Shown: positions 7,857-39,255, counted from the first letter of the stretch. The stretch is DNA of 64,000 bases from a virus (IMGVR_UViG_3300023238_000006:1-64000); one strand, 5' to 3'. Program-made: numbers and translations. The notes: generated from the sequence alone by a model not told the origin.

Positions 7857-8002
7857 TAGTTACCCCTCTCCATACTATACTTACCCCCATCAGTAATAGT
7901 AGAACATTTAGGGCATATCATAACCCCAAACATCTTAGGTATAGGTAGAACCTTCTCCCCACACCCAGGGCATTCTACTAGTTTATCTAGTACACTACTC
8001 AT
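7856..8002 (-). CDS. Small zinc-ribbon protein (48 aa, MSSVLDKLVECPGCGEKV...CPKCSTITDG...).
   Basis: Manual reverse-complement translation. Two CxxC pairs. Start and stop are coupled to neighbouring genes (TAATG overlap). Confidence 0.4.
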   Translation of the reverse strand: MSSVLDKLVECPGCGEKVLPIPKMFGVMICPKCSTITDGGKYSMERGN

Positions 8003-8005
8003 TGG

Positions 8006-8593
8006 TTACTTCTTTAGTCCGCAGCCAACACATACGCTGAATCTACCAAGGCGGTTATGTATAGCTGTAACCTCTGTAGAAGTGCTACATTTACATTTAC
8101 CTGTTGCTGGTGTAGGCTCTTTACCATCCTCTGGTAATATATCAAATCCTATATACCCTGTGACAGAATCAACACTATGAACAGTATATGTACTGCCATC
8201 GGGGGTACGGATGTAGGTAACACCCAGTGCTACAGCTTCATTAAGATCTAATGAGAACTGTGTACCATCCCACTCTGGAGTATCTGGAAGGTTACTAGTG
8301 ATGACTCCTATAATCCTGCCATCAGGTAGTGTGTGTAGATTACAATCACCAACTAGTGCAGACTCTAGGCTATCCTCTGTAGGAACCTCTGCCAAAATTA
8401 AGTCTTGTGAAGACTTTGGAGCTACTTCTTCTAGGTCTATAATAGTAACTGGTATCTCTACCTCATCAATAACTACAACCTCCACCTTAGCAGCTTCTAC
8501 CGCTGCTCTTACCACTTCCATCTCTTCATCTGATAATACATTATCTGTAGTATCTATATCTACTAGCTTTACATCATTCTTAGCTCTTGGCAT
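8006..8593 (-). CDS. Hypothetical acidic protein (195 aa), first gene of the leftward operon.
   Basis: ORF track. Begins immediately next to the divergent intergenic region. Confidence 0.45.
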   Translation of the reverse strand: MPRAKNDVKLVDIDTTDNVLSDEEMEVVRAAVEAAKVEVVVIDEVEIPVTIIDLEEVAPKSSQDLILAEVPTEDSLESALVGDCNLHTLPDGRIIGVITSNLPDTPEWDGTQFSLDLNEAVALGVTYIRTPDGSTYTVHSVDSVTGYIGFDILPEDGKEPTPATGKCKCSTSTEVTAIHNRLGRFSVCVGCGLKK

Positions 8594-8965
8594 ATGAATC
8601 CTTTTGTTTGTTTGCGGAAGTATACCATAACTATTCTATCCACTATCCTCTCAGACAACTCTCTGGAGGCTCTTGAGCAAACGTAAGGGTTTAGGTAGCT
8701 AACGGTATGGTTGTGTGAAGCAAATGGCCCAGAGGTGGGTTAGAATTATTCCTAGTGGCCTATGTAGATATTAGCTAGTTGTAACTACTCTTAGCTAGTG
8801 CTATTTCTCTTCTGAGTTATCTGCGCAGCTGATGGTGAAGGGGCCTTATGTGCCTTATAGTAATATTTTTATTTTTCAGGAATTGTAGTTGGTATTTCTG
8901 AATTAATCTAGGTAGTGGTTCCCTTATATAGGGGATTTATGGAAATAGCTATTGGCAGCTAAGGG

Positions 8966-8986
8966 GGAGGAGGAGGAGGAGGAGGA
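8966..8986 (+). repeat. (GGA)7 microsatellite inside the polypurine tract.
   Basis: ggaggaggaggaggaggagga. Confidence 0.8.
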
Positions 8987-9300
8987 TGGAGAAGAGGGAG
9001 AGGTATAGTGTGTGTAGGTGGTAGCTAGGCCTTAGCTAGGAGCGGTAGCGACGGTAGGGAAGGTAGAGGGTGGGTGGTGGGGCAGGTAAGTAGGTGTGGT
9101 TGCCTTGAGAGGGAGGGTCCACAAGAGGGTAGTAGGCAGTGGAGATGGTAGGTTCTCAGCTGTTTGGCTTATGGGGATATTTTGTTATTTTTTGGTAGGG
9201 GGTTAGTATAGCCCACACAAACCCACACTGCACCTCCCACCCCCCGCCTAGCTAACAGAGCAAAGGGACCCAAGAAACTTGCCAGTAGTATTAGTTGTAG

Positions 9301-9315
9301 CTCAGCTTAGCTGAG
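9301..9315. promoter_or_regulatory. Perfect 7-1-7 palindrome CTCAGCTTAGCTGAG, a candidate operator upstream of the first rightward gene.
   Basis: Read directly. Lies about 75 nt upstream of the 9388 start. Confidence 0.35.
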
Positions 9316-9387
9316 TACAGTGTGGTGGTACCAGTAGACTAGCTTGCACTCACCTGAGTCGATGAGCTACTACTCAAGGAGTATCAA

Positions 9388-9546
9388 ATGAAGTACACAA
9401 GCCTTAACTATAACAACTATGATGCTAAGTTTGACTTAGATTCATTCGAGGAAGTAATAGAGATAGCAGAGCCTACATACTACCTCAATGAGTACTGGCT
9501 AGTACTTGGAGTGGCAGTAACCTCCTCTTTGAGGAGTAGAGTGTAG
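9388..9546 (+). CDS. Small early protein (52 aa) with a good RBS (caaggagtatcaaATG).
   Basis: Manual translation. SD-like aagga 8 nt upstream. Confidence 0.4.
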   Translation: MKYTSLNYNNYDAKFDLDSFEEVIEIAEPTYYLNEYWLVLGVAVTSSLRSRV

Positions 9547-9668
9547 TGGAAGAATAGAGAACAGACAACATCGGTATCCTCTAACCGTAAGACCTAGCGA
9601 TACTAGAACTCTTTACAAAGCTTGCCGAATGGCTAATCATATTCATTAAACCGTAGGAGGTTACAACA

Positions 9669-9944
9669 ATGGAAGAACTTATACCCACTTTTACACTTAT
9701 CGCACTAGCAATCATGGCAATGTGGATGTTTCCATCTGCAAGATTCCGCAAAAGCATAGGTAACTCACTCACAAGTACTATAGAAGTACAAGCTAAAGCA
9801 ATGGTCCGTAATGCTCAGATGAATAGCATACAAAGTGAAGTGGAGACGATGAATGAGTTCTTAGACCAAGGTCTAACTGAAGCAAGTATAGCAGAAAGTT
9901 GTCAAGCATTTGACAGACTAATCGCTAGAACACCTAAAGCATAA
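9669..9944 (+). CDS. Hypothetical early protein (91 aa).
   Basis: ORF track. RBS aggaggttacaacaATG. Confidence 0.5.
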   Translation: MEELIPTFTLIALAIMAMWMFPSARFRKSIGNSLTSTIEVQAKAMVRNAQMNSIQSEVETMNEFLDQGLTEASIAESCQAFDRLIARTPKA

Positions 9945-9954
9945 GGAGTTAACA

Positions 9955-10311
9955 ATGGGAAGAAGTATACAGCCACCTGTGGCAGCTGTTAGAGCAACTT
10001 GGGACAATCACGTCCAACTTGCTAGTTACTTACAACATAAAGGGCTTACAGCTGACAAGACTGTAGCCTTCTTGAAGGGTAAGGATTACACCCTCAACAA
10101 CCTCAAGTACGAAGCAACTCGTGTATCAGCTGTAATAGCTGGTATTGAACTAAGTACTCCTGTAGATAAAGTCGAGGCGCTAGTTGCCTCAGTAGATTTA
10201 GTAAACTCTGGTCTAGCATCAGGGTCATTGAAGTATACAAAGGCCAAAGGTATCCAAGTAATGCCAATGGCAAAGCCAATAGAGCCACCTATTAACGAGG
10301 TAGCCTACTAA
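9955..10311 (+). CDS. Hypothetical early protein (118 aa).
   Basis: ORF track. RBS aaggagttaacaATG. Confidence 0.5.
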   Translation: MGRSIQPPVAAVRATWDNHVQLASYLQHKGLTADKTVAFLKGKDYTLNNLKYEATRVSAVIAGIELSTPVDKVEALVASVDLVNSGLASGSLKYTKAKGIQVMPMAKPIEPPINEVAY

Positions 10312-10423
10312 TGGTAATATCATACGATGTGTTGTTTGTTGCAACCCTCTGTTTAATATGTGCAGTAGCTTTGGTCATCCTTGACCATAACACCTCACAT
10401 CATCCGTTCTAAAGGAACATACT

Positions 10424-10516
10424 ATGAACAAGCTAACTAACAAGCTAGCCATATACTTAACTGTGTACCCAAATGGTACTGTTTGTCACTTCGCTAAGTG
10501 GCTAAAGACTGTGTAG
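10424..10516 (+). CDS. Very small ORF (30 aa) with an RBS, directly followed by a terminator.
   Basis: taaaggaacatactATG, then a hairpin at 10523. Confidence 0.25.
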   Translation: MNKLTNKLAIYLTVYPNGTVCHFAKWLKTV

Positions 10517-10522
10517 ACATTA

Positions 10523-10550
10523 GTAACCTTCGGGTTGCTCTTGTTTTTTT
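10523..10550 (+). terminator. Rho-independent terminator (GTAACC-TTCG-GGTTGC stem-loop plus T-run).
   Basis: gtaaccttcgggttgctcttgttttttt. Same hairpin core as the terminator at 15616. Confidence 0.6.
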
Positions 10551-10762
10551 AGGGCAACCCACACATCAGCCACAGCAACTGCTCTGCTAAAGCTACCACA
10601 CCGTTGCTGGAGAGGCCTACGGAGTAGGGCTATCCTTCTACCTAGTGCTACCCAGCTACTTGATAGGCCGGCTATCCTTGCCTCATATCCTCTTCGAGGA
10701 TTCGTGTGTGGCGGTATTTAATGGTTATGGTCATTACTTGCTAATAAACTAATGGAGATAAT

Positions 10763-11005
10763 ATGTTCGAAGTAACAATTGCAATGGTACTTGTACCTAT
10801 ATTCTTAATCCTAGCTTGGAACCTCAGAAGAGGGGTGTTCAGTCAAACTGCTATATGGAGAGAGAAGGTCATACTAACTACTAAGGACTCTGAAGTAGAT
10901 TTACAAGAAGACTATAAAGAGTTAGCTGATAAGGTAGTAGCCTCTAAGGCTAAACACGGAGACAAGTGGTTCAAGATGAGTGACATCGATGAGCTAATGA
11001 AGTAG
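10763..11005 (+). CDS. Hypothetical small membrane-anchored protein (80 aa).
   Basis: ORF track. Hydrophobic N-terminus. RBS ggagataatATG. Confidence 0.45.
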   Translation: MFEVTIAMVLVPIFLILAWNLRRGVFSQTAIWREKVILTTKDSEVDLQEDYKELADKVVASKAKHGDKWFKMSDIDELMK

Positions 11006-11072
11006 AAGGGGTATAACTACCTTTTACAAAATAGCATAAAGGCAAAGCCTTTGTGTATATAAGGAGATAACA

Positions 11073-11204
11073 ATGGAAATAATAACAATGGTCTTGGTGC
11101 TGATGTTCTGGCCTATAATAGTGCCAATAGTAGCACTAGTATACACAACAGTCGTATGGCGCCTAGTAAGCCTAGTAGGGCTTGTGATAGGTGGCAACAA
11201 GTGA
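11073..11204 (+). CDS. Small hydrophobic peptide (43 aa).
   Basis: ataaggagataacaATG. Entirely hydrophobic core. Confidence 0.35.
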   Translation: MEIITMVLVLMFWPIIVPIVALVYTTVVWRLVSLVGLVIGGNK

Positions 11205-11243
11205 AGAAGGTGGTAGACTCTATAGAAGAGGCGCTAGAGCCTT

Positions 11244-11264
11244 GTAAACGACTCACTATATATA
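11244..11264 (+). promoter_or_regulatory. T7-class phage promoter-like sequence gTAAACGACTCACTATAtat. 13 of 13 match the T7 consensus -13..-1 ACGACTCACTATA.
   Basis: Direct comparison with TAATACGACTCACTATAG. Chance occurrence in 64 kb is improbable. The phage encodes a T7-like RNAP. Confidence 0.5.
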
Positions 11265-11536
11265 TTCTAGGAGTAGTTGTGGGAATCCTCACACAAGTAC
11301 TAGCTACTATCTCGTAAGACCTTCTAGGAGACCCGTGACGGGTCGCTACTTCAATAAGGTACTGGAGTAGCCTTTAGGGGAGATCGTGGCGTAGAGAGGC
11401 TCGTAGGTACTGTACACGCCTCTCACAGCCCTAACAAACACTCCACCTACAACAACCACTAAACAACCTCTGTACATACTAAGCTACACTTAAGCCTATG
11501 TACACTACAATACCAAATATGACATAAAGGGTAACT

Positions 11537-12007
11537 ATGAATTACGAACTACTCCAAAGAGATATAGTCGTAGCCACTGATAAGAAGTGGCTTAAACGCC
11601 ACCACTATTACACAACAGCTATCAAGCTATACGGAGTACTAGCTAAATCTCCACCAGACCTATCAGACACTGCTATGGCGTACCTCTGTACTATGGGGCT
11701 AACAACATACCAAGAGGCTAAACGACAACTAGTCCACTCAGGGCTACTAGAAGTACATAAGATTAACTCCACCACAATAGTATTCGTACTAGGAGATAAA
11801 GCTATAAGATACTACGCTAGACGCATAGCCTCTAAAGAGCACCAAAGGGTCCTACGCAAGGCCTTAGAGAGTATTAACTACCCAGACGCACCTGTATCTA
11901 TAGAAGAGGACGAAGTTACCTTAGACTATTCAGAGACAGATTTAGTAGCCTTAGCACAGACTATACCTAAACCTATAGCTATAGATACAAATATAGTAGT
12001 ACTATAG
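11537..12007 (+). CDS. Hypothetical protein (156 aa).
   Basis: ORF track. RBS taaagggtaactATG. Confidence 0.5.
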   Translation: MNYELLQRDIVVATDKKWLKRHHYYTTAIKLYGVLAKSPPDLSDTAMAYLCTMGLTTYQEAKRQLVHSGLLEVHKINSTTIVFVLGDKAIRYYARRIASKEHQRVLRKALESINYPDAPVSIEEDEVTLDYSETDLVALAQTIPKPIAIDTNIVVL

Positions 12008-12423
12008 CACCAGTATACACGTAACGCCGTGTGGACTAGTATCGTCTCTGTCTTACAGAAACTCTAGTAATATAGAAGCCTCGCAAAAACACCACCTAAA
12101 ACCCTTGCAAACATAAGGTACAGCGAGGTTTAGTCGTGTACAATAATAAAAGTGGCATAAAGGCACTTCAGCCCAGCTCTTACTACGAGCCTTCAACAAT
12201 TACATAAATACCATAAAGGCATACTATGAACTACCAACAAGAAGACATTAATAGGAGAAGTCTCAGATAGAGGCTTGCCACTTCTAGCATTAGAACTAGA
12301 GACTAAATATAATCTACCTGCAGAGGTAATTATAGAAAGTGACATAAAGGCCTTCCACCTTTTATTTAAGTATAGAATCAGACCTAATATCCACTACTCT
12401 CCACTAAGCCTAAAGGACTCACA

Positions 12424-32323: not shown

Positions 32324-32324
32324 A

Positions 32325-32489
32325 ATGAAATACTCTCAAATGATAGCAATACACACCACAGCACTACTACTGTTAGGGGTAGCACTGGCTATATACCCAA
32401 TACTATTACCTATAGTCCTACTAGCTATGTGTGTAGTCCTAGTTGTACAAGCTGGAGTTGAGCTATACCACTGGCTGACTAATGTCTAG
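32325..32489 (+). CDS. Small membrane protein (54 aa).
   Basis: Manual translation. TAAAATG follows the DNAP-exo stop. Confidence 0.35.
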   Translation: MKYSQMIAIHTTALLLLGVALAIYPILLPIVLLAMCVVLVVQAGVELYHWLTNV

Positions 32490-32589
32490 CATAGGTGTAG
32501 CTGAGGCTATACTAACTATGGGGATATTAATAATATTAATAACGTTCATAGGCACATACTGTGCTGTTGAACACTCTAAGAAAAACTAA
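32482..32589 (+). CDS. Small membrane peptide (35 aa).
   Basis: Manual translation. Confidence 0.25.
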   Translation: MSSIGVAEAILTMGILIILITFIGTYCAVEHSKKN

Positions 32590-32864
32590 ACTACCTTCCT
32601 CCTGGCATTGCTAATACCATATAAGCCCAATGGCGTCTATTGGTCTTCCGCTGACGTACACTCGCTAAGACTAACTCCATTCATCTTCATTGGAGTATAA
32701 CATTAAGATGACCGAGAAGGGCACTATCATACTAACATCCGCAGCTCGGTATATAAAAATAAGAGCAAGGGATGTATGGCGGGACTAATACACCTTGCTT
32801 AATACAAACGTAATACAGAAAGATACTGTATAACAGACCCAGAGGCCGTTGAGGTAACGCTGCG

Positions 32865-32954
32865 GTAGGTGTAAAGTAGTCCGGTAACACTTGGTGTATC
32901 ATTTACCTGCAGAGGTATGCATCTAGATCGCTGGTTCAAATACAGCCACCTACC
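32865..32954 (+). tRNA. tRNA-like element with a 7-bp acceptor GTAGGTG/CACCTAC, a D-arm AAGT..ACTT and a T-arm GCTGG-TTCAAAT-ACAGC. The 37-nt middle region (anticodon/variable) could not be folded by hand.
   Basis: Manual base-pair check. Class II or intron-containing tRNA, or a tRNA-like decoy. Confidence 0.25.
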
Positions 32955-34348
32955 ATGAGAGAAGACTCAAACAACATTCCCGAACTTACAGTTCTAATCT
33001 ACCTTCATCGCGGATAGAAATTAGATAACCCTACAGGCTCCCGGCGGGCTGTGTAGGTTGAAACAAGCCATACTACTTAGGCTAAACTAGTAGCAGAGCA
33101 TAACTGCAATATCCGTCTGGTCCCCGTAAGGGACTCTATAAACTCCTAGTGAGCATACACACTAAGACAGGAATACAAGAGACTGCCTGACTACGCAGTG
33201 TATTGCGTAATACACCCAGTCAGTTGTGTGTTCTCTAGGGTTTTATACCCAAAGTTTCTATCAGCTTGATGATGGCGTATATCCTACGACACAAGGATCA
33301 ACACCGTGCCTCTTATCAAGGCTAGTACGCTGGTTGTATACGTATGAAGAAGTAGCTTGATACCTACATTTGAACCAAAACCGGTAACTGCTCCCGTTAA
33401 GGGCTCTGAGACGAGAAGGCTCTCGCCTTCTCTCCACAGCCTAGCAGCTAAGTTCCTAAGAGCATATAGATAACTGTTCCATAGATGTAAGCTGATGCCC
33501 AACGCTATGACTAAGTAACCCTAGAGCCCAACGAGATTAATTATCTCACCACACATTTGGATAGCACGTCGAGAGTCACTATGCCGGTCCATTGTAGATA
33601 CTCAATGCTATATGTTCTTAGGAGCTTATCCCTCCTGAAAAAAGCTAGTAACTTAATTACTCTTCTTAAACGTCAATGCACTATTATGCCCCAGATGTGA
33701 ACAGGGAATGCCTGGCAACGTATATAGGGAATGTTGTGAAGTGTCTTGCGTATTAGCACCATAGGTAGCACTTGGAGTATAGGTACCTAGCGACCTGCAC
33801 TCGAAAATTATATCAATGCGCTAAGCCCTTGTTGATACCTTGGGAGATGTCTACACTCGATGTGAGGGGACGCTAAATACAAGATCATCAGACCACTAGT
33901 TACCCATCACTAGTATAAATAAGATGGGCAATATGTAAACGTATAAAGTAGGGTTGCCTACAAATGTGGCTGTCCTCGAGGCTTGTAGACCACATCCTAT
34001 TAAGGTGCAGTTCAACTCTGATTCGTTTACACCAAAAATAAGTACCAGTCATCTAACTAGTCAAGAAGCTCCATTAAAGGAGCTAATGTGAGTGCAACTC
34101 TCACCTGGTACACCAGCTCCGTATAGAGTATAAACGATTCAGTCAAGAGTAAAGACTATAACTTATCCCCTCGGGATTGAAGCTTCAAAAAGTACGTCAC
34201 TGTGGAACAGGACTTAAAAGAAACAGTAGGTTCCTCACGTACCTTAAACGTGGGTGCATATGCTGCAGCCTGGTTGGCACGAGAGGTTCGATTCCTTTAA
34301 CAGCACTAGATATATCGAAAGATCCTCATATCTTAAATGGGGACGTAA

Positions 34349-34424
34349 GTACCATTAGCTTAATCGGTAAAAAGCGTCGACTATTAAAACATAAGATACT
34401 GGTTTGAATCCAGTATGGTACACA
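34349..34424 (+). tRNA. tRNA-like element with acceptor GTACCAT/ATGGTAC, U8, a D-arm GCTT-AATCGGTAAA-AAGC containing GG, and a T-arm ACTGG-TTTGAAT-CCAGT. The anticodon stem does not pair.
   Basis: Manual folding. Probable degenerate or pseudo-tRNA. Confidence 0.2.
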
Positions 34425-35190
34425 AAACAATGGGGCGAGCATTACAGAGGCAGGATGAATTTGCAACTTCATCAGTGAGTTTGACTCTCACCGCTCCACC
34501 ATGATACCACCTATGAGCATAAGTTATAAGCCAGGAATAAAACCGCCTGCAGTACCGAACAGTAAGGTACAGTGTTACCGGTCCACTTATGTTCTTAGGT
34601 GTTATCACCAGTCCCCAGCTAAGACTTAAAATAAATGCACTCCAAGCCATTATGAGTATAAACCATTGGCAGTACCCGCCGATAGCAGGGGCAGTTTAAG
34701 TGCTAACCAAGTCTCCGGAAGCTCATCTAGGTCAAGACTTTAAACTGACCCTAAACGAAGCAGGTTTTACCGTTGTACCTTAAACAATGGCTACGACTAT
34801 CCCTGTGGGTACATACAGGAAGACAGGATAAGTATACACTGCCTGAAGCGTGTAGTTAGTTGCGCACATCTAACCCAGTGCTGTATGTATCCTCAGGGGT
34901 CGTCTAGCTAAAGAATGACCGCTAATCATAAACTATAGCAGCGTGGCAAACAGAGCTGAAAGACTCAATACCAACCAGAGGTACCGGACGCTATAAAAAT
35001 TCGGGGTAGACGGAGTTAACCATAGGTGTACAACTACTGGTGCAAAAGCAATAAACTTATGAAGGTTATATACTCTCCTTTGGAGATCAAGTATGTAGCC
35101 TTTAGTAAGTTTATACAATACGTAACATAGTACAGATTAAAGCCATAAAAGGTACTTAATCTGTATTATAATAAACATTAAAGGAACCAG

Positions 35191-35529
35191 ATGGAAACAA
35201 CTCTACTAACAATAGCCCTAATACTAATCACCCACTTCGTGGCTGATTTCGTACTCCAATCAGACTACGTAGCTAAGAACAAATCTAAATCTAACTGGGT
35301 ACTACTACAACACGGCACTATCTATATGATACCCTTCATCATCATAATAAGCCCACTCTACGGCCTAGTTAACGCTATCCTGCACATTGCTGTGGATTAC
35401 TTCACATCACGTGCTACAGGTAAGCTATGGGCTGCTGGTAAGACTCATGACTTCTTTTTAGTTATAGGATTTGATCAGTTATTACATTCACTAACGCTAA
35501 TAGGTACTTACTACTTATTAGTATTATAA
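35191..35529 (+). CDS. Small polytopic membrane protein (112 aa), first gene of the NAD-salvage operon.
   Basis: ORF track. Three hydrophobic segments. RBS aaaggaaccagATG. Confidence 0.5.
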   Translation: METTLLTIALILITHFVADFVLQSDYVAKNKSKSNWVLLQHGTIYMIPFIIIISPLYGLVNAILHIAVDYFTSRATGKLWAAGKTHDFFLVIGFDQLLHSLTLIGTYYLLVL

Positions 35530-35537
35530 GGACTTCT

Positions 35538-36062
35538 ATGCTTAAATACGGAATAATACTTGGGAGATGTCAGCCCATGCATTTAGGCCACCAACACATT
35601 ATCAACAAAATAATATCGGATGGACTAACACCTGTAGTAGTACTAGGCTCTTCACAAGAAGCTGGTACTACTAAGAACCCATATCATCCACTACAACGTA
35701 TACACATGCTTCGCCTAGTATACCCAGATATCAAATGCTTCGCATTAGATGATGCTGACTGCTGGGACGAATGGTACAACAAGCTTATAAACTCAATAGA
35801 GTTAGTAATAACTGATGACTTATCAGAAGTAACTATCTACCTCCACGACAAACTTGAAGACTTACAAGACTTCACCTTTAGAGGTATAGACTATTTCAAT
35901 GAGTCATACAGCAAAGTCTACGAAGTAGACGGTATGCATACAACTAAGCTAGCTATATCTGATATTCAGATTAGAGCTAAATCAATACGTGAAGACTTAG
36001 AAGGTAATAAACACTTCTTAGATACTAACGTGTATAACTATATAAAGGGACTTAATGACTGA
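35538..36062 (+). CDS. Nicotinamide/nicotinate mononucleotide adenylyltransferase (NadM/archaeal-type NMNAT, 174 aa).
   Basis: GIILGRCQPMHLGHQHII is the G-R-F-Q-P-F-H-x-G-H nucleotidyltransferase signature of NadM-type NMNAT. Confidence 0.7.
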   Translation: MLKYGIILGRCQPMHLGHQHIINKIISDGLTPVVVLGSSQEAGTTKNPYHPLQRIHMLRLVYPDIKCFALDDADCWDEWYNKLINSIELVITDDLSEVTIYLHDKLEDLQDFTFRGIDYFNESYSKVYEVDGMHTTKLAISDIQIRAKSIREDLEGNKHFLDTNVYNYIKGLND

Positions 36063-36603
36063 TACAACAATAGAATGGCAATCCCCTGAGACAACACCAG
36101 CAGGTGATCCGTTCCTAACAGTAAAGAAAGCTAGAGGTTACTACTACTACGCAGAGCGTGGGGGAGTAGACTCTATAGCCTTCGTACTGCTGGATAAAAC
36201 AGCTAACAAGATTGGTCTTATACTAGAGAGTAAACCTCCTATGGATGAAATGGCTTCAATTGAAGTTGACTACATCACTGCATTTGGGGGGTCTATAGAC
36301 TCACCAGACTCTAAGACTGATATAGTTATAACTGAGGTATTAGAGGAAGCTGGTTACGTAGTAACAGCTGATAATGTAACTGAAGTTGGATCAACTGTGG
36401 TATCGACCCAAATGAGTCAAACACTTTACGCCTACACAGTAGACGTTACAGGTATACCTAAGACTGCAGAGACTGAGTACGAGTCTCAAGGTAAAGGTGA
36501 TAGAACACAGTGGATGACATTCACTGAAGCATTAGCAAACTCTGACTGGAAGTCTATATTTATTATGACTATGTTAGGGCACAAGCTAGATGGAGCTAAA
36601 TAA
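36055..36603 (+). CDS. Nudix hydrolase (ADP-ribose pyrophosphatase-like, 182 aa).
   Basis: Nudix-box-like GGSIDSPDSKTDIVITEVLEEAGY. 8-nt overlap with the NMNAT gene. In other phages NMNAT and Nudix are fused as NatV. Confidence 0.6.
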   Translation: MTDTTIEWQSPETTPAGDPFLTVKKARGYYYYAERGGVDSIAFVLLDKTANKIGLILESKPPMDEMASIEVDYITAFGGSIDSPDSKTDIVITEVLEEAGYVVTADNVTEVGSTVVSTQMSQTLYAYTVDVTGIPKTAETEYESQGKGDRTQWMTFTEALANSDWKSIFIMTMLGHKLDGAK

Positions 36604-37997
36604 TGCAATCAATACTAAACCTAGCTGATTCCTACAAATTCTCACATTCAAGCCAGTACCCAAAGAATATGGTAAGTCAATATGACTACATGGAATCACG
36701 TGGGGGCACTTACCCTGCAACAGTATTCGTAGGACTTCAGTACTACTTATTCAAGTACCTAACAGTACCTGTGACTGAGTTAGAAGTAAAACTAACAGCG
36801 GCTAAAGCTGCTCGTCACGGAGTACCTTTCGATCTAAATGGTTGGATGCATATTGTAAACAACTGTGATGGCTTAATTCCCGTAGAAATTAAAGCAGTAC
36901 CAGAAGGCAGCCTAATACCTACCAAGATGGTACTAGTAACTATAGAATCAACAGACACAGCTGTTCCATGGATAGCAGGATTCTTAGAGACTATCTTAAT
37001 GAAGATCTGGTACCCAACTACAATAGCTACTAAATCTTACTACACTCGTAAGATGCTAGAGAAGTACGGAGATCCTGAATGGGCTAAGTTCGCTTACCAC
37101 AACTTCGGAGACCGTGGCGCTACCTCAGTAGAATCTGCAGCTATAGGAGGCTTTGCCCACTACACCCAATTCATGGGAACTGATAACTTCAACTCCCTAG
37201 ACATTGCAGAGAACTACTACGCTACAACAGCCATGCCAGCATACTCAGTATACGCTACCGAGCACTCTAGCACTACCTCACACGGTCGTGAAGGAGAAGA
37301 AGAGTTTGTCTATACTCAGCTATTAGAAAACCCTGGTAAGGCCATCATGAGCTTCGTAGCTGATTCATACGACGTGTATGAGTTTACTAAGTTCTGTACA
37401 GCCCCTAACTCTCGTATTAGAGAACTAATTGAGTCTAGACCTAGCCAAAAGTTAGTCCTCCGCCCTGACTCTGGTAACCCTATTGAAGTGATGACACAGA
37501 TGTTAGCTATAGTTAAAGCCAATAATTGGGGCTATACTGAGACTCCTACAGGATTACTATTCAATCAACTAGGTATCTTATGGGGTGATGGAATCACTCC
37601 TGAAGTAATAGAAGAAATCTTAGCTATGGTACCACGTGTGGGCTATGCAGCTGGGAACTTCATATTTGGAAGTGGTGGTGATCTCATGCAGAACATCACT
37701 AGAGACACTCAGAGGTTTGCTATTAAATGTAGTAGTATCACTGTAGCACATGATGAGTTTATAGGTAATACCTCGTACGAAGAGGTAGATGTCTACAAAG
37801 ACCCTATTACTGACCCTGGTAAAGCCTCTAAACGTGGTAAGGTAACTACTTACATTAGAGAAGATGGTACTTACTTCGTAGACCTGGTAACAAATAAAAC
37901 ACCTGATGCTAAGAATGCTTTAACAACTGTATTCTTAAATGGTACGGTAACTAAAGAGTATACACTAGAAGAGATACGTAACAACTCAAAGGACTAA
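36603..37997 (+). CDS. nadV: Nicotinamide phosphoribosyltransferase (NAMPT/NadV, 464 aa).
   Basis: N-terminal LNLADSYKFSHSSQYP (the DSYK motif of NAMPT/NAPRT). Length is typical. Co-operonic with NMNAT. Confidence 0.75.
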   Translation: MQSILNLADSYKFSHSSQYPKNMVSQYDYMESRGGTYPATVFVGLQYYLFKYLTVPVTELEVKLTAAKAARHGVPFDLNGWMHIVNNCDGLIPVEIKAVPEGSLIPTKMVLVTIESTDTAVPWIAGFLETILMKIWYPTTIATKSYYTRKMLEKYGDPEWAKFAYHNFGDRGATSVESAAIGGFAHYTQFMGTDNFNSLDIAENYYATTAMPAYSVYATEHSSTTSHGREGEEEFVYTQLLENPGKAIMSFVADSYDVYEFTKFCTAPNSRIRELIESRPSQKLVLRPDSGNPIEVMTQMLAIVKANNWGYTETPTGLLFNQLGILWGDGITPEVIEEILAMVPRVGYAAGNFIFGSGGDLMQNITRDTQRFAIKCSSITVAHDEFIGNTSYEEVDVYKDPITDPGKASKRGKVTTYIREDGTYFVDLVTNKTPDAKNALTTVFLNGTVTKEYTLEEIRNNSKD

Positions 37998-37999
37998 CT

Positions 38000-38665
38000 A
38001 TGGCTAAACTATCAATCTGCTGCGTCTCGGACACACATGGTAAACACAGCCAACTAACCCTCTCTAAATACCCGGCTGATGTACTTGTACATGCTGGGGA
38101 TTGGACCGGAGGTAAGGACATAGCCCTAACTGAGACTATAGCCTTCCTAGACTGGTTCTCTGAGCAACCATTTGAACACAAGCTATTCATAGCCGGTAAC
38201 CACGAGAGAACTGTAGAGGCTAACCCCCAAGACTTTCAAGACTTACTAAAGCACTACCCAACTATAGAGTACATTCACCATAAAGCGGTAACTATTTCCG
38301 GTATTAACTTCTACGGCAGTAACTACTCTAACGAGTTCTGTGACTGGGCATTTATGGAAGAAGAGCCTGAACTATCTAAAGTCTGGGACCTAATCCCTAA
38401 TGATACTGATGTCCTTGTGACTCATGGGCCAGCCTATGGCTGTCACGATCAAGTTAAGCATGCTTACGGACGTGATCCCCATGTAGGGAGTAGATCTCTT
38501 CATCATAAGAAACTATCCCTCCAGGATACATTAAAACTCCACATAAGTGGGCACATCCACGAAAGTTATGGCACATCCTCAGATCTATGTATAAATGTAT
38601 GTGCCTCGGTACTAAATGAGAAATATCAATTAGTAAATGAACCAGTAGTAATAACACTACACTAG
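38000..38665 (+). CDS. Calcineurin-like metallophosphoesterase (221 aa).
   Basis: CVSDTHG, GDWTGG, IAGNHE and the later GHIHE are the MPP family motif series. Confidence 0.65.
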   Translation: MAKLSICCVSDTHGKHSQLTLSKYPADVLVHAGDWTGGKDIALTETIAFLDWFSEQPFEHKLFIAGNHERTVEANPQDFQDLLKHYPTIEYIHHKAVTISGINFYGSNYSNEFCDWAFMEEEPELSKVWDLIPNDTDVLVTHGPAYGCHDQVKHAYGRDPHVGSRSLHHKKLSLQDTLKLHISGHIHESYGTSSDLCINVCASVLNEKYQLVNEPVVITLH

Positions 38666-39023: not shown

Positions 39024-39255
39024 TTAGTTGGTTGAGGTGAAAGGCCTCTTATAAATAGCGTAGAGCTTACCACATAGTCTACCTAGACTCTAAACTTGCT
39101 GGCAACCAACCAGAGTGTTGATGGCTACACAGGTTTAACCATCTGCGAATGAGGCTCAGCCTAGCATAAGGCTAGTAGAGGCATGGTACCTCTACGATCA
39201 TTTATACTACTTATGAGTATAACGGTACCAATAATTAATATAAATAGGAATAACT

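Follow-up and report, generated by a model that had tools for sequence, protein, structure and literature searches.

A predicted NARP2-type NAD+ reconstitution module with a stand-alone NMN adenylyltransferase and an uncharacterised Nudix family in an uncultured phage

Depletion of nicotinamide adenine dinucleotide (NAD+) is among the commonest anti-phage strategies of bacteria, and phages are known to answer it with NARP1, NARP2 and NARP3. Five genes at positions 35191-38665 of a 64,000-nucleotide (nt) stretch from an uncultured large phage (IMGVR_UViG_3300023238_000006:1-64000, hereafter the window, which was searched over its whole 64 kb) had been read in a first-pass annotation as belonging to an NAD+ salvage operon. 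Which of these genes form a pathway, and which are only packed against it? We propose, with a probability of roughly 0.8, that positions 35538-37997 encode a three-gene NAD+ reconstitution module of the NARP2 (NadV/NatV) type, a reading carried by the protein families and by the linkage of their genes across phage contigs. The predicted products of the five genes are as follows (aa, amino acids; NMN, nicotinamide mononucleotide):

35191-35529, + strand: DUF3307 small integral membrane protein, 112 aa
35538-36062, + strand: stand-alone NMN adenylyltransferase (NMNAT), NadM/archaeal type, 174 aa
36055-36603, + strand: stand-alone Nudix-fold hydrolase of a family called here type 1, 182 aa
36603-37997, + strand: nicotinamide phosphoribosyltransferase (NAMPT), Nampt/NadV clade, 464 aa
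38000-38665, + strand: MPPED2/239FB-like binuclear metallophosphodiesterase (MPE), 221 aa

Families and layout of the NAD+ genes

The five + strand open reading frames (ORFs) of the first-pass annotation are all present exactly where it had placed them, as are the motifs it had singled out: GRCQPMHLGH, an instance of GRxQPxHxGH with its HxGH core, in the NMNAT, DSYK in the NAMPT, and DTHG, GDW and GNHE in the phosphoesterase. From the first gene to the last, neighbours are separated by 8 nt, overlap by 8 nt, overlap by 1 nt and are separated by 2 nt, a tight packing that would allow translational coupling. No terminator-like site was found on the + strand inside 35191-38665, the first one lying at 39175-39195, and a scan for sigma-70 promoters returned 12 sites, fewer than the 17 expected by chance, and is therefore uninformative. 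The locus is 100% identical in sequence across four independent metagenome assemblies, and the separation of NMNAT and Nudix is therefore not an assembly error. These two are indeed separate overlapping genes, as had been claimed, read in different frames.

The family of the protein encoded at 36603-37997 is unambiguous from its sequence, and we predict a nicotinamide phosphoribosyltransferase of the Nampt clade. Both NAMPT_N (9e-22) and NAPRTase (2e-31) were found by Pfam scans, phrog_448 was matched at 7e-118, and NCBIfam NF006629 was matched at 447.9 bits, above its cut-off of 405. Nampt makes NMN and partners Nmnat in NARP2, whereas the homologous Namat uses the ADP-ribose pyrophosphate (ADPR-PP) made by Adps in NARP1 (Osterman et al. 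2024). The window protein shares 37-41% identity with the Nampt of Vibrio phage nt-1, which is KVP40-like, and with that of LucasX, encoded next to a NadM gene, and 37-42% with Nampt overall, compared with 28-30% for the Namat that phages EC6 and 812 encode beside Adps; no NAMPT of a GenBank phage exceeds 42%. A small neighbour-joining tree places it, along with its relatives from metagenomes, with these Nampt and apart from the EC6 and 812 Namat. A tblastn search of the 64-kb window with the EC6 and 812 Adps gave only noise (E > 4), and Adps was found at none of 21 related loci, chosen as those with a NAMPT at least 43% identical to that of the window.

Two other loci (L215 and L221), whose NAMPT is 36-41% identical to that of the window, gave tblastn matches to NMNAT and to an Adps/Prs-like protein within 8 kb. 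No phage is described as having NARP1 and NARP2 together (Osterman et al. 2024). The Adps/Prs-like match may be an ordinary Prs that supplies phosphoribosyl pyrophosphate (PRPP).

The NMNAT assignment was obtained by a profile. The protein itself matches CTP_transf_like (1e-5, 25.9 bits), and its NCBIfam matches are all to NMNAT families, mostly over the first 60 residues. A profile made from seven orthologs and run against the PDB matched NMNATs exclusively (E from 8e-14 to 3e-6), among them the Synechocystis NadM-Nudix protein (2qjo, 8e-14), the M. jannaschii enzyme (1f9a, 2e-12), M. thermautotrophicum 1ej2, NadR 6gye and Francisella NadM 2qjt, aligned over positions 3-170. The prediction of a divergent, stand-alone NMNAT of the NadM/archaeal type holds on this evidence.

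The Nudix protein had to be approached through its homologs. In direct scans it gave no Pfam or PHROG match of its own, and phmmer against the PDB returned nothing beyond a spurious weak match to APRT (E = 0.15); a weak match to TIGR00052 (YffH/AdpP family) was seen. PF00293 is matched by 26 of 36 aligned type-1 homologs, at best with 4e-7. The AlphaFold (AF2) model of the window protein (pLDDT 93.9) was aligned by Foldseek to E. coli NudK, to the Klebsiella and E. coli NudF ADP-ribose (ADPR) pyrophosphatases (ADPRases), to the Thermus thermophilus ADPRase and to human NUDT14 at about 1e-8, with template-modelling (TM) scores of 0.6-0.7. More than 200 PDB Nudix chains match it at E of 1e-3 or less, and among viral proteins it matches best one from a Lactobacillus phage that carries the annotation ADP-ribose pyrophosphatase. 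The homolog matches and the model together confirm the predicted Nudix fold at 36055-36603. The Nudix box is non-canonical (G79, x5, D85, x7, T93, E94, V, L, E97, E98, A, G100, Y), with G79, E94, E97, E98 and G100 invariant in the alignment and the three metal-binding glutamates kept. From its fold neighbours and gene context, the protein is predicted to be an ADP-ribose or nucleoside diphosphate sugar (NDP-sugar) pyrophosphatase.

The enzyme families named in the first-pass annotation thus fared unevenly in searches with hidden Markov models (HMMs): NAPRTase, CTP_transf_like and Metallophos were matched, which bore out the NAMPT, the NadM-type NMNAT and the phosphoesterase, whereas the Nudix protein has no direct Pfam match and is placed in the proposed ADPR pyrophosphatase-like type through its homologs and model.

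Type-1 Nudix proteins are an uncharacterised family found only in metagenomes, and this family is the new element of the locus. It comprises 355 cluster representatives at E of 1e-3 or less among 1.84 billion, and no tblastn match at the same threshold was obtained in 50,697 GenBank phage records, in which the operon DNA has no nucleotide match either. Two simpler origins were rejected. The protein is not a split-off Nudix domain of NadM, as hhalign against the LucasX NadM Nudix aligned only 35 columns around the Nudix box, at 22% probability. Nor is the gene pair a frameshifted NMNAT-Nudix fusion, as both ORFs have complete ends matching stand-alone homologs. The same split is seen in three further loci (L014, L019 and L178). 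In genomes of 185,579 species, the family was met on five contigs from metagenome-assembled genomes (L178-L182), four of which were binned as Campylobacterota (Epsilonproteobacteria, Campylobacteraceae, Sulfurovaceae and Campylobacterales). This binning hints at the host of the phage group, with mis-binning as a possible alternative.

Linkage across phage contigs and comparison with known pathways

Linkage was examined from both sides. On the Nudix side, we took 18 viral-contig loci whose type-1 Nudix is at least 43% identical to that of the window and inspected 10-kb neighbourhoods. NAMPT is present in 11 of the 18, always downstream, on the same strand and 2 to 4288 nt away, and NMNAT is likewise present in 11. 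As a control, we used the best 81 loci among 185 viral stretches encoding MPE homologs, where NAMPT is found in 2 (11/18 vs 2/81, Fisher p = 1.7e-8). On the NAMPT side, the 21 loci include 18 with NMNAT, 9 with a type-1 Nudix and 6 with a second Nudix type that matches NUDT14 at 8e-9; none of the 21 has both types together. In three contigs (L051, L129 and L192), the NUDT14-like protein fills the slot between NMNAT and NAMPT. The three genes are kept together through at least four gene orders.

Fusions point the same way. Several longer members of the type-1 family carry an N-terminal cytidylyltransferase-like domain followed by a C-terminal type-1 Nudix; one of them, P0229, shares 37% identity with the NMNAT of the window (143 residues aligned) and 40% with its Nudix (174 residues aligned), and both P0229 and a second fusion, P0236, are encoded directly beside a NAMPT gene. 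Such fusions directly support a joint function of the pair, and judged from linkage and fusions, that is, from sequence, the Nudix protein is a real third partner of NAMPT and NMNAT.

What is already known is the pathway itself: the NadV/NatV pathway of KVP40 (Lee et al. 2017) is the one named NARP2 in 2024 (Osterman et al. 2024). The window resembles it in combining a Nampt-clade NAMPT and an NMNAT of the HIGH superfamily in one phage, with no Adps found in the window, and these are the two defining enzymes of the NAD+ salvage that the first-pass annotation had proposed and that we retain as predicted chemistry. It also resembles KVP40 in having a Nudix activity accompany NMNAT, although here this is predicted from genes. 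What is new is that the NMNAT is unfused and that the NadM Nudix is replaced by an uncharacterised family absent from GenBank phage records. Unlike in KVP40 NatV, NMNAT and Nudix are two genes overlapping by 8 nt, and the Nudix belongs to another family. The bacterial NadM-Nudix proteins of Synechocystis (2qjo) and Francisella (2qjt) are among the best PDB matches of the window NMNAT and likewise pair an NMNAT with an ADPR-type Nudix; however, the window NMNAT, at 174 aa, lacks a C-terminal Nudix, and its fused relatives such as P0229 carry a type-1 Nudix instead. The bifunctional NatV/NadM-Nudix architecture is therefore absent here, where the ORFs are separate and the Nudix is not of the NadM type.

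With the YffH/AdpP/NUDT14 group (NudF, NudK, NUDT14 and T. thermophilus Ndx4), the window Nudix shares the modelled fold, including the N-terminal beta extension, and the three Nudix-box glutamates, but identity is 11-16%, the arginine and first glutamate of the box are not conserved, and Pfam NUDIX is not reached. Two other pathways, NARP1 (Adps and Namat, with or without the Macro phosphatase Adpp, the former being NARP1-AP) and NARP3 (PnuC and NadR), also rebuild NAD+ during infection, whereas scans of the window gave no Adps, Macro domain, PnuC or NadR kinase domain. The phosphoesterase of the window has a different fold from the Adpp of NARP1-AP, and in other phages its gene shows no linkage to the module.

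NARP2 thus appears modular in uncultured phages: NMNAT and an ADPR-type Nudix come as one polypeptide or as two, and the Nudix slot can be taken by at least three lineages (NadM type, type 1 and NUDT14-like) that are unrelated or only distantly related. This repeated filling suggests that the Nudix activity is no incidental domain but a third component of the pathway that is under selection. The type-1 family, which has no member in cultured phages, gains a specific functional hypothesis from this context.

Some relatives vary the neighbourhood of the module. In L129, a gene with a NADAR domain (PF08719, 3e-48) directly follows NAMPT, and a tmRNA gene with three tRNAs lies immediately upstream of the DUF3307 gene; NADAR also follows NAMPT in L196 (the features of this NADAR and tRNA-tmRNA neighbourhood are at 7948-8615 and 12883-13386 in L129 and at 9513-9968 in L196). 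L023, and with it L022, carries at 7979-12186 a lambda-phosphatase-like gene, a truncated NMNAT (158 aa, without the HxGH N-terminus) and an intact type-1 Nudix, after which a reverse-transcriptase-like ORF with a YADD motif occupies the place expected for NAMPT. This arrangement looks like a decayed version of the module. A reverse-transcriptase-like ORF is also present in L019 (2067-3086).

Proposed mechanism and its alternatives

In the pathway that we propose, the NAMPT would convert nicotinamide and PRPP into NMN, and the NadM-type NMNAT would join NMN and ATP into NAD+. The Nudix protein would most likely cleave ADPR, the second product of NADase defence effectors, to AMP and ribose-5-phosphate. 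This step could remove ADPR and also return ribose phosphate, via the host Prs, to the PRPP pool that NAMPT uses.

Several observations weigh against this reading. The search for Adps covered 64 kb of the genome. The NMNAT reaches no NCBIfam cut-off, and when it is searched as a single sequence, only its first ~60 residues are aligned with confidence. The Nudix protein departs from the canonical box GX5EX7REUXEEXGU, in that the arginine (a threonine in the window, and variable) and the first glutamate (an aspartate in the window) are not conserved; their loss makes it possible that the activity is reduced or altered, or that the protein only binds its ligand. GDP-mannose and UDP-glucose hydrolases stand among its best folds beside the ADPRases, and ADPR as the substrate is therefore not settled. 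A type-1 Nudix also occurs with no NAMPT nearby in L017 and L023, and the regeneration of PRPP depends on the host Prs.

The same biochemistry could have been selected for another reason, namely as a general metabolic booster that raises NAD+ for replication. Published work reports that NARP2 raises NAD+ even in hosts that lack any defence system and that NadV is common in medium-sized and jumbo phages generally. Genes for ThyX, a family A DNA polymerase and an AAA ATPase are also present in the window, and the cassette has ThyX on one side and the genes for DNA polymerase and replication on the other, a location that suits this role. However, the KVP40 pair of Nampt and Nmnat is reported to overcome, in experiments, several NAD-depleting systems (Thoeris, DSR, SIR2-HerA and aRES), and the constant presence of an ADPR-type Nudix, along with NADAR in some relatives, fits the handling of NADase products. 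By analogy with these KVP40 experiments, we infer a counter-defence benefit of the module. The two roles are compatible and not mutually exclusive, and a purely metabolic one is possible but rather doubtful as the main reason for the module.

A second alternative keeps NAMPT and NMNAT in the pathway and takes the Nudix protein out of ADPR recycling: it could destroy pyrophosphate-containing immune signals or NAD-capped RNA, or limit NAD(H) by cleaving it. Nudix enzymes have broad substrate ranges, and the non-canonical box suggests an unusual specificity. It has also been proposed in the literature that the Nudix domain of NadM regulates NAD+ and that phage Nudix proteins counter ADPR-derived signals. 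Yet the modelled fold is nearest to ADPRase, NudK and the NUDT14 NDP-sugar hydrolases, down to the N-terminal beta extension, and it is with NMNAT and NAMPT that the strict linkage and the fusion are seen, while other anti-signalling genes show no such tie. We consider this alternative unlikely.

The third alternative concerns the two flanking genes. In the first-pass annotation, the phosphoesterase was suggested to process ADPR or cyclic ADPR (cADPR)-type signals and the membrane protein to import a precursor, so that all five genes would form one extended pathway. The tight packing with no internal terminator-like site is in keeping with such a pathway, as are the occurrence of MPE within 1-3 kb of the module in L019 and L051, the DUF3307 gene beside the module in L051, L129 and L192, and the precedent of NARP1-AP for an added phosphatase. 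The MPE gene is probably co-transcribed with the module. Nevertheless, tightly packed neighbours are not automatically members of a pathway, and the comparative evidence on each flanking gene speaks against membership.

The product of 38000-38665 matches Metallophos (3e-11) and, nearly over its full length, MPPED2 in the PDB (3rl4, 3e-29). All the metal-binding motifs (DxH, GD, GNH(D/E), H and GHxH) are present, with D11, H13, D34, N67, H68, H142, H185 and H187 invariant, and these features place the predicted protein among the MPPED/239FB calcineurin-like metallophosphodiesterases. It resembles the class III-like MPPED1/MPPED2 (239FB) enzymes in these metal-ligand motifs, including the histidine of GHIHE, which is that of the G252H variant in 3rl4. 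It differs from eukaryotic MPPED1/MPPED2 in being 221 aa long without an N-terminal extension, and its genomic partners are genes for cREC and RNA ligase rather than NAD genes.

In relatives, an MPE of 57-61% identity lies directly upstream of the same helix-turn-helix (HTH), p327 and AAA genes as in the window. Two of them, L047 and L049, keep the order MPE-HTH-p327-AAA with no NAD genes within 10 kb, and L049 shares the upstream ThyX with the window; the simplest history is thus an insertion of the cassette, together with a 2.9-kb non-coding stretch, before a backbone gene. The two NAMPT-containing loci among the 81 MPE loci are both relatives of the window, and MPE occurs in 2 of the 21 loci of the NAMPT clade. 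Where the two do approach each other, their arrangement differs: in L051, a homing endonuclease, a small gene and an RNA ligase lie between MPE and the module, and in L019 the MPE gene is upstream of the module, beside a lambda-phosphatase-like gene. On this comparative evidence, MPE is probably a conserved backbone gene and not a component of the module. A role as an analogue of ADPRibase-Mn or Adpp in NAD salvage was rejected on the same distribution. Moreover, published work reports that NARP2 overcomes aRES, which produces ADPR 1-phosphate (ADPR-1P), without a phosphatase.

The commonest recognisable neighbour of MPE is instead cREC (PF20274), present within 4 kb in 26 of the 81 viral loci (the MPE, cREC and ligase loci are L052-L127, L051 at 8865-9995 and L013 at 8762-9130). 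Neighbours of the cREC and RNA ligase kinds hint at RNA-end or cyclic-phosphate chemistry, and one may guess that MPE would act as a phosphodiesterase on cyclic nucleotides or cyclic-phosphate ends. The RNA ligase of L051, which has a PHA02142 OB domain and an RNA_ligase domain, lies directly upstream of MPE, and cREC was also seen after NMNAT in L013/L203 and in L199. In GenBank, the homologs of MPE are mostly from Flavobacterium phages, including podoviruses of about 60 kb.

The membrane protein encoded at 35191-35529 matches DUF3307 (PF11750, 1e-10, 42.1 bits against a gathering threshold of 23) and phrog_2470 (5e-20), and PF11750 is present in 87 of 88 homologs among the matches listed. 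Its AF2 model is a bundle of four to five membrane helices (pLDDT 96.9), for which Foldseek against the PDB found nothing below E = 1, and the Pfam scan gave DUF3307 alone, with no PnuC or SWEET-like match. A half-PnuC or SemiSWEET-like importer was rejected for want of a fold match, and the proposed import of a precursor is not borne out by any similarity to transporter families or folds. The invariant residues (H15, D19, Q23, K31, H41, Y45, H65, D69, T72, S73, D95, Q96 and H99) include four histidines and three aspartates in helix-embedded, HxxxD-like pairs, which would make a metal site likelier than a pore, and the model suggests a membrane-embedded metal centre. The DUF3307 gene adjoins NARP2 genes only in the window, L051/L185, L129/L202 and L192, in differing positions, and homologs of 57-67% identity sit among unrelated genes. 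NAMPT is nonetheless modestly enriched within 10 kb (6 of 42 DUF3307 loci vs 2 of the 81 control loci, p = 0.019), and it is possible that DUF3307 is at most an occasional accessory of the module.

The extended pathway is accordingly very unlikely in its general form. Still less probable is its most elaborate version, a five-gene NARP2 built like NARP1-AP, in which the type-1 Nudix and MPE would break down non-canonical NAD products or signals (ADPR-1''-phosphate, cyclic ADPR isomers and 2',3'-cyclic phosphates) and so supply NAMPT with ribose phosphates, with DUF3307 as a membrane metalloenzyme or precursor channel. As for the idea that the NAMPT homolog is a Namat joining nicotinamide to ADPR-PP, as in NARP1, it is scarcely credible: the two enzymes are homologous, and KVP40 Nampt is reported to be weakly active on ADPR-PP, but identities and tree place the window protein with Nampt, Adps was found neither in the window nor at the related loci, and an NMNAT gene is adjacent.

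The upstream non-coding stretch

Compared with this dense cluster, the DNA directly upstream of it is of another kind. Positions 32324-35190 form a stretch of 2.87 kb with stops in all six frames, in which the longest stop-to-stop run is 103 codons, and phages do not usually have a non-coding stretch of this length. The other assemblies of this phage carry it unchanged. No notable repeats were found in it, and blastn gave no match in GenBank phages; the L051 contig matches it twice, over 33-35 nt at 91% identity (window positions 32674-32708 and 32780-32812).

Rfam searches of this gap and of the leader of the operon returned no riboswitch or other RNA family except for one tRNA-like match, at 34349-34422 on the + strand (46.7 bits), where ARAGORN, which calls no tRNA in the window, is silent. 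The acceptor, D and T arms of this element pair well, whereas its anticodon arm (UCGAC UAUUAAA ACAUA) has no possible stem, and the element appears to be a degenerate tRNA or to be merely tRNA-like.

Finally, RNA folding revealed two long hairpins directly upstream of the DUF3307 gene:

35050-35113, + strand: first long hairpin
35126-35169, + strand: second long hairpin

Their stems are of about 28 and 14 bp, and the start codon of DUF3307 follows 20 nt further on. The fold of 34990-35195 has a minimum free energy of -60 kcal/mol and a z-score of -6.5, and none of 200 shuffled sequences folded as well. From this modelled fold, the hairpins at 35050-35169 may be a leader, processing or regulatory structure.

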